From a virus, in IMG/VR virus record IMGVR_UViG_3300027797_000001, positions 1 through 64,000 of that record: a stretch of DNA of 64,000 bases. One strand, written 5' to 3'. Position numbers and translations under genes: made by a program. Shown here in pieces: positions 7,986 to 11,463 of this stretch; the stretch's first letter is position 1, and each line of letters begins with the position of its first letter. A model generated the notes under the pieces. The model searched no databases. It saw only the letters and a program-made list of their open reading frames with translations, and was not told the DNA's origin.

Positions 7986-8897
7986 CTATTTTTCAGGTGT
8001 CATGAACAAGTCAATAACTTTCTGAAATCTAGGATCAACATTGATTCTCAATGCTGCAGCAGCTTTAACATCCAACTCTCGTTGAGCATTAAATTCCATA
8101 GTAAGTCTAAGCAACTCACCCTTGTATGCATCCATAGCAAGTCTATATTCTCTGTTAAGAGTTTCTTCAAGACTTAAGAAAGCAGCAGCCATGTCTGCAT
8201 TCTCACGCTGGATCCGTGCATTCTCATCACTAACCAAGTTTTTAACCTTAGCTTTGAAATAGTTTACACGTTGTTCATACTGACGGTGTTGCTCAGCAAT
8301 ATCCTCATGGATTTCTAATAAATCCTGAGAATTATGATGCTTAGTAATCTTAACCGGAGTCTTCTTACCATCCTCTACATTGAACCATTCAATGCTAGGC
8401 ATGTTAGATAACTCTTTTCTAAGACTAGACAACTTACCATTCTTATGGATAAATTGACCCAAGTGAGCTGCCATAGCTTCTGCTTGCAAATATTCTGAGT
8501 ATTCTGCATCAGTAAGCTTAGACCATCCCCATGATTCATCCACAGTATGAATAACATCATAGTCAGGTGCATACTCTCTCTGTGGTTCCACAAGATGAGA
8601 GAAATCAGGACGTGTGTTCTGTATTCTCTCTATCTCAGCATCTTTACCCTTGATAGCTTCCATAAGGAATGCTTGGCAAGCATGGAGATCACCCTTGAAC
8701 TTTAATTTCTCAAGGATATTATCCGGAATCACAGATGGCTCTTGCATCACATAAGACTGCTTGTCTATAACAATAGATTTACTGCAGTTGTTGTAAGATT
8801 CCAACTCACGCTGAATCTCTAAAGCATTTTGATTGCACAAGTTACTAATTGATTGTGCTTGGGACATGCTTAAACCCTTGGTAGATAAATTTCTCAT
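7986..8897 (-). CDS. 303-aa helical/coiled-coil protein of unknown function
   Basis: Long ORF with strong leader; heptad-like Glu/Ala/Leu-rich C-terminal half. Confidence 0.85.
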   Translation of the reverse strand: MRNLSTKGLSMSQAQSISNLCNQNALEIQRELESYNNCSKSIVIDKQSYVMQEPSVIPDNILEKLKFKGDLHACQAFLMEAIKGKDAEIERIQNTRPDFSHLVEPQREYAPDYDVIHTVDESWGWSKLTDAEYSEYLQAEAMAAHLGQFIHKNGKLSSLRKELSNMPSIEWFNVEDGKKTPVKITKHHNSQDLLEIHEDIAEQHRQYEQRVNYFKAKVKNLVSDENARIQRENADMAAAFLSLEETLNREYRLAMDAYKGELLRLTMEFNAQRELDVKAAAALRINVDPRFQKVIDLFMTPEK

Positions 8898-8949: not shown

Positions 8950-8976
8950 GAGTAGTTTAATATCATACTCAGGATA
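8950..8976 (-). repeat. 27-nt repeat copy 1, predicted H-type pseudoknot
   Basis: Minus strand TATCCTGAGTATGATATTAAACTACTC; stems TATC/GATA and GAGTA/TACTC. Confidence 0.7.
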
Positions 8977-8991
8977 AATTTACTTGGAATA

Positions 8992-9411
8992 TTATCTATC
9001 TTCTTCAGTAAATCCTGCTGAATCAGTTTCAGGTCCATTATCAATGATAGCTTCATTAATAATTTTACCATCAACTAATCTAGAGATAGAACAAAATTCT
9101 ACATCATCATTATTTGATAAATGTTGTAGTAATTCTGCATATTCAGATTCTGTTTCTAATGAACCACATTGAGTAACAGTAGTATGGTATAATTTTAATT
9201 TATAAGCACCATAAGGATTTTTGATTTCAGATATTTCCCAATCTTGTTGTGTTAACTCAGATAATTTCTTGTCTCTGTTAACAATAGTAGCTGAATAATG
9301 ATAACCACAATTACTGCAGTTAATATATTCTTCACCTGTCTTGTAATAGAAGTCACTATATGCTTCTTGTTTGCAGTTAGGACATTCAATGTAATCAATT
9401 ACGCTTGCCAT
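8992..9411 (-). CDS. Zn-ribbon protein
   Basis: CPNC...CSNCGY at N-terminus. Confidence 0.8.
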   Translation of the reverse strand: MASVIDYIECPNCKQEAYSDFYYKTGEEYINCSNCGYHYSATIVNRDKKLSELTQQDWEISEIKNPYGAYKLKLYHTTVTQCGSLETESEYAELLQHLSNNDDVEFCSISRLVDGKIINEAIIDNGPETDSAGFTEEDR

Positions 9412-9465
9412 AATTTTAGTTTTAAGTTTAGTTTTAAGTTGATTAATAAAGTTTCTATAAGTTGT

Positions 9466-9857
9466 TTACCCCTCTGCACTCAGTTATAATATCCAATTAC
9501 ATCAATTAGTAATACTCAAAAGTATTATCTATATCAGATTTCTGGCTTATTACAACTGTCTAGCCTTGGGAAGTAGAAATGGTACATTACAAAGGCTTTA
9601 GACTAGTTAGGTCTCACTTACTTACCTTATTTCGAGGTAGCCTTATAAGCAAAGTTGTACTGTCCCCGTTACAGTTCTTTTGCAAGAGAACTGACAAGAT
9701 GACTATTCTTGTAGGAGCTTGGGCAACACGTATTTTAATTTGTACTCTCACAAGGTTGCAATCCTTGGTCATCGGTTTGTATTATCAGGAATCTAAACCC
9801 AATACCTAAGTATTATTAGTTTATCTATCTGTCTGTACCTGCTTGGATGAGAGTATA
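9466..9857 (-). ncRNA. cluster of candidate structured RNAs including a tRNA-like element
   Basis: Stems 9743-9750/9848-9855 plus 5-bp/7-nt T-like arm 9751-9767; 9672-9678/9687-9693; 9481-9490/9549-9558; no convincing minus-strand ORF. Confidence 0.5.
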
Positions 9858-9861
9858 TAAA

Positions 9862-9888
9862 GAGCAGTTTTATATCATGCTTAGGATA
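9862..9888 (-). repeat. 27-nt repeat copy 2 (variant), predicted pseudoknot
   Basis: TATCCTAAGCATGATATAAAACTGCTC; compensatory AGTA/TACT to AGCA/TGCT change. Confidence 0.7.
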
Positions 9889-9893
9889 GTTGG

Positions 9894-10016
9894 TTATCCC
9901 AACTGCTCAACAGCAATCGGGATGCCTTGCTTGTCTAATACTCTTTTAACAGTTTTACCATTAGAGTATTTAACATACTGTACAAGGTGTAAGTTACCTT
10001 GAAACATCTGAATCAT
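9894..10016 (-). CDS. 40-aa hypothetical protein, not in ORF track
   Basis: MIQMFQGNLHLVQYVKYSNGKTVKRVLDKQGIPIAVEQLG*; A-rich leader; flanked by pseudoknot copies 3 and 2. Confidence 0.55.
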   Translation of the reverse strand: MIQMFQGNLHLVQYVKYSNGKTVKRVLDKQGIPIAVEQLG

Positions 10017-10089
10017 AGTTTTAAAAATCATAGTAAATAGATTTAAGAATTAATAAATAAGTATATGATGAGTTGTTATTTTAAAACAA

Positions 10090-10116
10090 GAGTAGTTTAA
10101 TATCATACTCAGGATA
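10090..10116 (-). repeat. 27-nt repeat copy 3, predicted pseudoknot
   Basis: Identical to 8950-8976. Confidence 0.7.
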
Positions 10117-10679
10117 TGTAGCCATGCCTACCTGTTATACATGGAAGCAGAAATCTTACTGCATATCTGATTCGGTTTCCGTATGTGGTCAATCAGCTAA
10201 CCATAGGACATTAGTCCCGTAAATAAATAGACTACCCTGCAAGAGAGTAGTCTTGTTCCATAACTACCACTAATCCAACTGCCGGATGGTGGTATCTATA
10301 CACTTCCCGGAATCCCTCTTTAGTCTTTTCTTCTACAAGAGAACATAGAGGTTTATCTATAGAGAGACAATAGTCTTCTGTAAGGGTAATAGTATCTAAC
10401 ATATATATAGTTTTAGTTGGTTACTTAATAAATAGTTAGCTATATATATTTTTTATTTAATATAAATATTAAATCTAAATAATACATAGTAACTATAGTA
10501 GATAGATAGAAGAGGTGTTTAATTATCAGTTAGTTACATACACTTAATTAAACTAAAGTATACGCGCGCGTAGATAGTTATCACAGGAAAAAATATAAAA
10601 ATATAGTCTTTCAAGTGTCAATAACTATTAACTATTAACTAATTCACATAATCCTATGACCCAACCGCACTCTTATCTT

Positions 10680-10710: not shown

Positions 10711-10750
10711 AAAGAAAAAAAAGAGAGAGTCATAAACTCTCTCTTATTTT
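10711..10750 (-). terminator. intrinsic terminator (possibly bidirectional)
   Basis: AAGAGAGAG/CTCTCTCTT stem with long T tract on the minus strand after ORF 10760-11203. Confidence 0.8.
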
Positions 10751-10759
10751 TTGCTATTC

Positions 10760-11203
10760 TTAAGAACCTACTGGATTCTTAAGATTAGCCTTTGCTTTTG
10801 GTGCAGACTCCTGTGGAGTCTCAGCATCAAATGCAGATGCCGCGGCAGAGGAAATGCCACTGCCCATTAGTTGACGAGCCTGTAGCTCCGCTACCTTGTC
10901 AGCTAATCTGGCAGAGCCTTTGCTCTCCGCAGTTTCAATAGATCCTGCAGCAGCAGTGATCTCATTGAAATCTACAAAATAACCAATACCATCGGTGAAG
11001 GTTATATTGTAGAGCCTTCCTTGGTCAAGCGGGCAAACCGCGAAGATTAAGGAAGTAGTGCCATCATCAGCAAAGCGGTGATTGGCACCTTGATAAGTTT
11101 TATACTTATCAAGTTCGGCAGGTGCACCGGTAACGGTAAACCTGGCACGGATCTTACCAGTAGCCTTGCTACGGTAAGAGTTAAGAAATTTTGCTTGTAG
11201 CAT
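10760..11203 (-). CDS. hypothetical protein, first gene of the left arm
   Basis: 147 aa, visibly higher GC than neighbours, own terminator. Confidence 0.8.
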   Translation of the reverse strand: MLQAKFLNSYRSKATGKIRARFTVTGAPAELDKYKTYQGANHRFADDGTTSLIFAVCPLDQGRLYNITFTDGIGYFVDFNEITAAAGSIETAESKGSARLADKVAELQARQLMGSGISSAAASAFDAETPQESAPKAKANLKNPVGS

Positions 11204-11237
11204 AATTTTTTAATTTAAAAGGTTAATATTATTATCC

Positions 11238-11255
11238 TTTTAAATTTAGGGTTAG
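11238..11255. repeat. 18-bp direct repeat copy 2
   Basis: TTTTAAATTTAGGGTTAG. Confidence 0.7.
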
Positions 11256-11463
11256 CAGAAGATGGAGAGTGCAGAGGCAATGACAAAGCTTTTTTCCCTA
11301 GAAAAAAATTTGTCTGAGCCTGTTAGAAGAAGGACACGTGCTGTGGAAAGACAAGGGGGGTCCCCCTCCTTGGCTTGGCCCGGGGGGTGTCTGCATAGGG
11401 GATCCATCACATCCTCTAAAATAAAATAATTTTATCCCCGTTTGGAATTTAAAAATTTAATTT

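Follow-up and report, generated by a model that had tools for sequence, protein, structure and literature searches.

The coremin xrRNAs of plant viruses are built from a 3-5-bp hairpin, important for its structure more than for its sequence, that is closed by a Y-R pair and whose loop reads YGAD (4 nt) or YGNNAD (6 nt), followed by a spacer of sequence UUAAACUAC and an obligatory second hairpin (hp2) on which Xrn1 resistance depends, and they stall both Xrn1 and scanning ribosomes and stimulate frameshifting (PMC6546385, PMC10520033, PMC10321173). They occur, as xrRNA-C and as the Watson-Crick variant xrRNA-WCC, in beny-, cucumo- and other eukaryotic RNA viruses (PMC6546385, PMC10520033, PMC10321173). 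The -1 frameshift pseudoknots of the luteovirus type (BWYV, PLRV; about 28 nt) combine a short stem 1 with a 2-nt loop 1, a 1-nt junction and an A-rich last loop suiting minor-groove triples, and begin 5-8 nt past the ribosomal A-site codon. REP elements and terminator hairpins are intergenic, lie after stop codons and confer segmental mRNA stability in operons, and the preQ1-I riboswitch (RF00522) is a small H-type pseudoknot with an A-rich tail. The triple helix of MALAT1 and MEN-beta is reportedly followed by the tRNA-like mascRNA; in MALAT1 an A-rich tertiary structure lies upstream of a tRNA-shaped RNase P substrate, and the 3′ end made by cleavage is shielded from 3′ exonucleases.

An element with likenesses to each of these occurs three times in the first 64,000 nucleotides (the window) of IMG/VR virus record IMGVR_UViG_3300027797_000001, which is 114,922 bp in length with direct terminal repeats. 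The record encodes a crAss-type major capsid protein, muzzle protein, portal and terminase, identifying it as a crAss-like phage of 115 kb. The window has a GC content of approximately 32%; its genes are read leftward from position 1 to about 11.2 kb and the structural genes rightward, and the three repeats, at intervals of 228 and 912 nt, are found close to where the leftward block begins (Table 1). The preliminary description of this DNA reported three dispersed copies of a 27-nt pseudoknot, and these prove to be real: copies 1 and 3 are identical throughout, none of 100 shuffles of the window gave such a match, and there is no copy beyond these three in the whole genome (a reversed-sequence control gave zero). 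Copy 2 differs from the others at positions 7, 10, 18 and 24. The change at pair 10/24, from U-A to C-G, is compensatory, which bears out the earlier statement that both strands of stem 2 are altered in this copy, and because pair 7/27 has gone from G-C to A.C its stem 2 has 4 bp. The copies were also said to sit at boundaries between units of the transcript, and each does follow the stop codon of a leftward ORF, at the distances listed in Table 1; in a relative (L027) the stop orthologous to that of the 56-aa ORF is only 6 nt upstream of the knot.

Table 1. Positions of the pseudoknot copies and of neighbouring features in the 64,000-nt window.
Feature	Position	Strand	Description
Pseudoknot copy 1	8950..8976	-	Stem 1 UAUC/GAUA, stem 2 GAGUA/UACUC; starts 15 nt after the 139-aa ORF stop; ends 52 nt before a 303-aa ORF
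Pseudoknot copy 2	9862..9888	-	Stem 2 AGCA/UGCU; starts exactly 5 nt after the 45-aa ORF TAA; followed by about 450 nt without an ORF
Pseudoknot copy 3	10090..10116	-	Identical to copy 1; 115 nt after the 56-aa ORF stop
139-aa ORF	8992..9411	-	Upstream cistron of copy 1; zinc-ribbon-like; weak Lar/Elf1 ribbon matches
45-aa ORF	9894..10031	-	Upstream cistron of copy 2; without family match
56-aa ORF	10232..10402	-	Upstream cistron of copy 3; end overlaps hairpin 10229-10253
ORF-free stretch, about 450 nt	9412..9861	-	Downstream of copy 2; blocks conserved in related contigs; candidate non-coding RNA
Sigma-70-like promoter match	10592..10621	-	Best in the region; TTGACA, 18 nt, TATATT; 11/12; consensus match only
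11-bp hairpin with T-runs on both strands	10721..10745		Bidirectional terminator-like site after a 147-aa ORF; consensus match only

The fold has H-type topology, with nucleotides 1-4 paired to 13-16 (stem 1, 4 bp) and nucleotides 7-11 to 23-27 (stem 2, 5 bp), a loop 1 of CU, a 1-nt junction and an A-rich loop 3 of the form WWAAAC. When this structure, ((((..[[[[[.))))......]]]]], is laid on 150 distinct members of the family, 95.9% of the cells are paired, compared with 76.2% in shuffles and 26-43% in slid controls, and the covariation score of the 150-copy alignment is 0.539 versus 0.170, with none of 500 shuffles reaching that score. Covariation among homologues had been suggested as a check, and both stems covary strongly in two scans of IMG/VR, one of which left stem 1 free and the other stem 2. 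Among the matches listed for the first, all four stem 1 pairs are present in 170 of the 207 distinct copies and three in the remaining 37, and stem 1 takes some 70 different sequence forms; the chance of pairing at the three free pairs is about 5%. Among the matches listed for the second, 66 of 99 have all five stem 2 pairs, and approximately 21 look like chance matches to the 16-base pattern; covariation is seen at four of the five pairs (7/27, 8/26, 9/25 and 10/24).

In pairs read on the sense strand G.U occurs 51 times and A.C only 15, and since G.U pairs are the more numerous, the RNA strand that folds must be the gene-sense strand. Several letters do not vary (C4, C5, U6, A11, G13, A19-A21, C22 and U23), the C4-G13 pair closes stem 1, an A directly follows the knot in two thirds of the copies, and the family consensus of the spacer is WWAAACURC. 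Nested folding recovers just a weak stem 2 hairpin (-1.7 to -4.2 kcal/mol; z-scores of -0.6 to -1.7) that is no better than those of shuffles; because neither hairpin is stable alone, any stability, and with it the function, must come from the knotted tertiary fold and its contacts. The preference expressed in the preliminary description for RNA structure over a DNA operator is thus supported: two interleaved helices both covary, G.U is tolerated on the sense strand only, and the element is oriented with its flanking genes. An intrinsic terminator was also considered and rejected, because nested folds are no better than shuffles and U-tracts are few (67 of 383 copies have at least 6 T in the next 10 nt).

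The closest known look-alike of this pseudoknot is the coremin xrRNA. Both have a short first stem with a pyrimidine-purine closing pair, which in the phage element is the invariant C4-G13 of a 4-bp stem with some 70 forms, and in both the loop opens with a pyrimidine. The spacer UUAAACUAC is matched exactly in copies 1 and 3, the variant UAAAAC is found in both systems, and tandem copies are known in both. Stem 2 further includes an antiparallel pairing of G7A8G9 with C25U26C27 that recalls the GAG/CUC-A of xrRNA-WCC. There are nonetheless substantial differences. The phage loop is 8 nt long (CUGAGYAW) and fits the YGAD/YGNNAD consensus only at its first Y and last A-D, stem 2 is a full 5-bp Watson-Crick helix, and hp2 is absent, the flanks being unrelated, with a tRNA, a ribozyme, a ribosome-binding site or A/T-rich sequence within 2-30 nt. 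The carriers are the mRNAs of double-stranded DNA phages and bacteria, whose hosts lack Xrn1, and the context points to protection of the upstream rather than the downstream RNA. Since the loop consensus is not matched and hp2 is missing, the phage knot, while it looks coremin-like and may work in a similar way, is by definition not a coremin; the class 3 xrRNA (PMC11702639) has a different fold.

The luteoviral knots share the short stem 1, 2-nt loop 1, 1-nt junction, A-rich last loop and distance from the A site, but the phage knot has a stop codon upstream of it, an unconserved spacer, and neither a slippery heptamer nor an overlapping -1 frame. It resembles REP elements and terminator hairpins in being intergenic and placed after stop codons, whereas those are long GC-rich hairpins and the phage element is a 9-bp knot with a barely stable nested fold and a sequence conserved across phyla. 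Its H-type fold, size and A-rich tail are similar to those of preQ1-I, but it has no match to RF00522 at E values up to 10, its 1-nt loop 2 leaves no ligand pocket, and the adjacent genes are unrelated to queuosine. More generally, Rfam 15 returned nothing on the knots either at the gathering threshold or at E values up to 10, and a literature search by sequence strings and by concept found no description of the motif in phages.

The window's three copies are not peculiar to this phage but further members of a very large family carried by thousands of unrelated phages, with at least 115-120 matches in each of the two IMG/VR scans and in one scan of bacterial genomes. The pattern with its four variable positions set to N matched 63 IMG/VR contigs with wholly unrelated flanks. 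One verified copy each is present in four cultured phages, namely Mycobacterium phage Labelle (56442-56468), Vibrio phage D456, the T7-like Paracoccus phage ParMal1 (25299-25325) and the Synechococcus cyanomyovirus S-RIM4, and Streptococcus phage Javan271 has a weaker copy. Among the matches listed from bacterial and archaeal genomes, which include metagenome-assembled genomes (MAGs) and represent many phyla, stem 1 is fully paired in 65 of 122; about 280 matches to the pattern used would be expected by chance in the 596 Gb scanned, so some of these are chance matches, and many of the bacterial-genome copies are probably prophages or mis-binned phage contigs. The bacterial phyla of the carriers number at least six (Bacteroidota, Actinomycetota, Pseudomonadota, Cyanobacteriota, Bacillota and CPR bacteria), and tandem knots are found, for example in contig L013. 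The counts that follow are to be read with three points in mind: every locus was gathered by means of the motif, many of the copies share a common descent, and genes were called simply as ORFs.

The knot is tied to the gene that precedes it. Knot and upstream gene share a strand in 162 cases and lie on opposite strands in 9; with the downstream gene the corresponding figures are 145 and 26. Convergent arrangements account for 24 cases. There is an exact 5-nt wall after the upstream stop codon, a feature of the family reported here for the first time: independently of any ORF calling, 107 of approximately 380 copies have a stop triplet, predominantly TAA, exactly 5 nt ahead of the knot across an unconserved spacer, compared with about 20-30 at each of the offsets 3-4 and 10-30 nt, the 3-4 nt values being background. 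By ORF calls almost no stops are closer than 5 nt, 68 are at exactly 5 nt, and 27, 17, 17 and 14 are at 6, 7, 8 and 9 nt. The downstream ATG shows merely a broad hump at 19-37 nt from the knot, and terminator-like hairpins are equally rare on its two sides (13 and 13 of 371). About a third of the copies, including copy 3, have no ORF of at least 60 aa within 40 nt, copies in relatives are also placed between ORF-free modules, and in some bacterial MAGs the stop codon falls within the knot.

Two further junctions are informative, and both are new. In 32 cases the knot lies 2-13 nt upstream of a tRNA that is the first in its array, and a knot is present within 15 nt upstream of 29 of 103 first-in-array tRNAs versus none of 71 internal ones; no knot was found within 45 nt downstream of any tRNA. 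Twenty-one of the 32 belong to one module (a DUF932 gene, the knot and tRNA-Asp) and are in part a single lineage. Since the knot precedes the first tRNA, cleavage by RNase P would leave it at the 3′ end of the upstream RNA. Approximately nine copies abut type III hammerhead ribozymes, with the cleavage site 5-8 nt past the knot. Two hammerheads in L315 are confirmed by Rfam (50.5 and 41.2 bits) and the rest were read by eye; four hammerhead-like sequences recognized by eye (L309, L026, L076 and L190) were not recovered by Rfam at E values up to 0.1. The contrast of first with internal tRNAs, the absence of knots after tRNAs and the hammerhead cleavage geometry sharpen the direction of any proposed function. 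The order of knot and then first tRNA follows the same logic as MALAT1, which is the nearest functional analogy, although there is no homology of sequence or fold, the eukaryotic structure is a U.A-U triple helix some 60-80 nt long, and protection by the phage knot is a proposal.

Building on the observed fold, strand, family and position relative to stop codons, tRNAs and ribozymes, we tentatively favor the interpretation that the knot acts as an end-cap beside the ribosome, at the 3′ end of the upstream cistron. The repeat would be transcribed within the leftward mRNA and fold into the 27-nt pseudoknot, a compact and mechanically tough structure set as near to the upstream stop as the terminating ribosome permits. 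The mRNA helicase site of the ribosome is at about +11 from the P site, so a position 5 nt past a stop codon in the A site is the nearest spot that needs no unwinding. With the 5-nt spacer, base pairing would begin at about +12 from the P site, at the mouth of the mRNA entry tunnel, and the knot would therefore remain folded while the upstream ORF is translated. Once the long transcript is cut or terminates downstream, the knot would come to form the 3′ terminus of the upstream fragment, where it would block 3′-to-5′ exonucleases such as PNPase, RNase II and RNase R, such that the upstream cistron retains its stop codon and outlives its neighbors, a form of segmental mRNA stabilization. RNase R and PNPase have 3′ tail requirements, and at the tRNA and hammerhead junctions the tail remaining after cleavage would be too short for most 3′ exonucleases to grip. 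Of the functions offered in the preliminary description, an exonuclease roadblock comes closest to this; the context argues for protection of an upstream 3′ end and not for a generic processing signal.

Support for the end-cap comes from the covarying fold with its sense-strand G.U excess, the strand bias toward the upstream gene, the fixed distance from the upstream stop, the tRNA and hammerhead junctions, the tandem copies and, in this window, the 5-nt spacing of copy 2 and the 15-nt spacing of copy 1, but several observations run against it. The nearest look-alikes, coremin and the luteoviral frameshift knots, resist machines arriving from the 5′ side rather than the 3′ side. In a compact genome, the pile-up at 5 nt would be expected whatever the function, as long as it required the knot to be intact. 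Part of the tRNA-linked knots represent one lineage, copy 3 is 115 nt from the nearest sizeable ORF, and there are the MAGs in which the stop codon is inside the knot.

These same points bear on the alternatives. The exact 5-nt stop spacing agrees with the geometry seen in frameshift-stimulating knots, coremin RNAs halt scanning ribosomes and promote frameshifting (PMC10520033, PMC10321173), and tRNA-associated knots precede the first tRNA of an array only, all of which would suit a ribosome barrier or insulator that stops ribosomes reading through, sliding or scanning after termination from unfolding the next unit (a tRNA, ribozyme, non-coding RNA or start site) and that may modulate termination too. 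We regard this as unlikely, given the third of copies, copy 3 among them, that are remote from any sizeable ORF, the copies lying between ORF-free modules in relatives, the 24 that face a convergent gene and have nothing downstream to insulate, and a spacer without a recoding signal. A roadblock in the other direction, stalling RNase J or 5′-end-dependent RNase E so as to shield downstream RNA such as the 450-nt ORF-free RNA after copy 2, in the way that coremin gives rise to stable non-coding RNAs, is suggested by the identity of the loop 3/stem 2 sequence UUAAACUAC of copies 1 and 3 with the conserved coremin spacer and by the GAG/CUC pairing shared with the Watson-Crick variant (PMC6546385, PMC10321173), as well as by the conserved ORF-free region that follows copy 2. 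A further point in its favor is that stable non-coding RNAs are produced in abundance early in infection by the crAss-like phage phi14:2, whose early transcripts are reported to be without a common motif (10.1101/2020.03.07.982082); phi14:2 itself, however, contains no copy of the knot at up to 3 mismatches. Since it is the upstream stop, rather than the downstream start, to which the knot keeps a fixed distance, cleavage at tRNA and hammerhead junctions severs the knot from the downstream RNA, no knot lies behind tRNA 3′ ends where a 5′ shield is needed, and the hp2 required by coremin is absent, such a 5′-to-3′ roadblock seems decidedly improbable.

The location of knots at cistron boundaries, in a slot that in other phages holds self-cleaving ribozymes or tRNAs, together with the invariant loop nucleotides, could also indicate a recognition site at which a host or phage endoribonuclease cuts the polycistronic transcript, in the manner of T7 RNase III sites. 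We consider this very improbable: a phage-encoded enzyme is hard to reconcile with a family whose phages come from at least six bacterial phyla, no protein was seen to accompany the knots, and the knot adds to the tRNA or hammerhead cleavage device rather than replacing it. Two remaining readings are essentially excluded. The suggestion that the repeats mimic type III antitoxin RNAs (ToxI, CptI, TenpI) and neutralize a host abortive-infection toxin draws on a resemblance, in that the RNA is small and pseudoknotted, includes an A-rich stretch and comes from a region that appears to be early, but it is unsupported; the copies are dispersed and not in tandem, there is no Rfam ToxI match at E values up to 10 and no toxin-like neighbor, and strict placement after stops and before tRNAs or ribozymes would be meaningless for an antitoxin. 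As for a promoter or operator acting at the DNA level, the motif does include letters resembling TGnTATAAA and precedes genes and tRNAs, yet interleaved covarying helices and strand-specific G.U pairs are unreadable from duplex DNA, the element is tied to the upstream gene and loosely to the downstream ATG, it is present before convergent genes, and L013 has a separate near-perfect sigma-70 promoter after the motif. The promoter reading was dropped on account of the covariation and the association with upstream stops.

A broader claim than the end-cap, that the knot marks boundaries within polycistronic mRNA as a mechanically robust element, is likely to hold. A bolder version of the end-cap, which we think doubtful, is that it serves as a near-universal 'full stop' of phage mRNA that docks on the terminating ribosome at its mRNA entry tunnel and, in combination with a device that cleaves downstream of it (a hammerhead, a host endonuclease, or RNase P acting at a tRNA), makes nuclease-proof 3′ ends, a bacterial counterpart of the MALAT1 triple helix and mascRNA on the minimal fold of the coremin xrRNA. 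Were this so, one 27-nt RNA machine would be shared very deeply, or have converged strikingly, across virus realms. The control of message lifetime within long phage operons is poorly understood, and a knot that marks cistron ends across phages of many phyla would amount to a general principle in phage gene expression, one absent from Rfam and from annotation pipelines. It would also connect bacterial mRNA decay, in a way open to testing, with the exonuclease-resistant RNAs found in eukaryotic viruses, and supply a tiny portable part for stabilizing or insulating cistrons in synthetic operons.

Scans of the ORFs neighboring the knots in the window against PHROG and Pfam returned no informative family, and among GenBank phages the region has no megablast match. 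Each of 15 RNA runs contained part of the stretch only (at most 39% of sampled words). In four of these, represented by assembled contigs, the contigs break off in or close to the 27-nt repeat, an effect to be expected of assembly, and they bear on neither RNA ends, strand nor level. Contigs from one freshwater RNA library are at least 99% identical to the window over 8173-8871, 10111-10334 and 10731-11268, which is no proof of transcription. The sigma-70-like match in Table 1, judged by its consensus, may be the start of the leftward unit that carries the three copies.

In the window, copies of the 27-nt H-type pseudoknot (the knot) lie at discontinuities between related phages. Relative to the window, contigs assembled from RNA libraries and belonging to related phages are missing 457 nt between 8974 and 9432 and 101 nt between 9888 and 9990, and in both of these skipped segments one edge falls at a knot. 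The related contig L027 is without the 450-nt region behind its own copy 2. The positions of the knots thus match those of mosaic (indel) boundaries among the relatives.

Behind copy 2 in the window lies an ORF-free stretch for which Rfam gives no match, and blocks of which are found again in four related contigs (L052, L021, L029 and L059), with a knot preceding one such block in L021 and L052. This stretch is a candidate modular non-coding RNA, reminiscent of the abundant early non-coding RNAs of the model crAss-like phage phi14:2. The A/T-rich leader abuts start codons on their 5′ side, both in the window phage and in related contigs (L004, L020, L056 and L066), and could serve as a promoter or, in a host whose translation does not depend on Shine-Dalgarno sites, as a translation leader.

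Features of the window other than the knots
Feature	Position	Strand	Remark
Conserved A/T-rich leader, AACTTATAGAAACTT-ATTAAT...	9412-9470	minus	
ORF-free stretch, ~450 nt	9412-9861	minus	3′ of copy 2
Hairpin, 11 bp, T-runs on both strands	10721-10745		directly 3′ of 147-aa ORF
Collagen-repeat tail-fibre gene, 793 aa	14167-16548	plus	

Elsewhere the knot occurs in two other recurrent settings. Nine IMG/VR contigs (L075, L084, L106, L134, L138, L009, L022, L042 and L053) share a module in which a DUF932 / phrog_1221 gene of 330-350 aa is followed by 5 nt, the knot, 2-8 nt and a tRNA-Asp gene, and it is because this module recurs that tRNA-Asp predominates among the knot-tRNA cases. In eight contigs from bacterial MAGs (L264, L266, L274, L282, L328, L339, L343 and L378) there is a conserved mini-ORF of ~20 codons whose product ends in ...PR(V/I)(A/S)HCxxGCxxxS; knot nucleotides 6-8 supply its TGA stop codon, so that the ribosome must enter the knot there. 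An intrinsic terminator lies 3′ of the mini-ORF and knot in L264, L282 and L378. These cases are the same fold put to a different use.

Further to the right in the window, the 11-bp hairpin resembles a bidirectional terminator; on each of its strands, Rfam matched several sRNA families weakly. The tail-fibre gene falls within a 2-kb bin at 43% GC in a genome of ~32% GC, which suggests either recent acquisition or a composition driven by its collagen repeats. We also note a possibly fortuitous resemblance at the nucleotide level between the motif with its flank and a 32-nt stretch within nrdD (anaerobic ribonucleotide reductase) of T4-like phages, with 81-84% identity in Vibrio phage VPMCC14, Enterobacteria phage U5 and Escherichia phage vB_EcoM_G4498.
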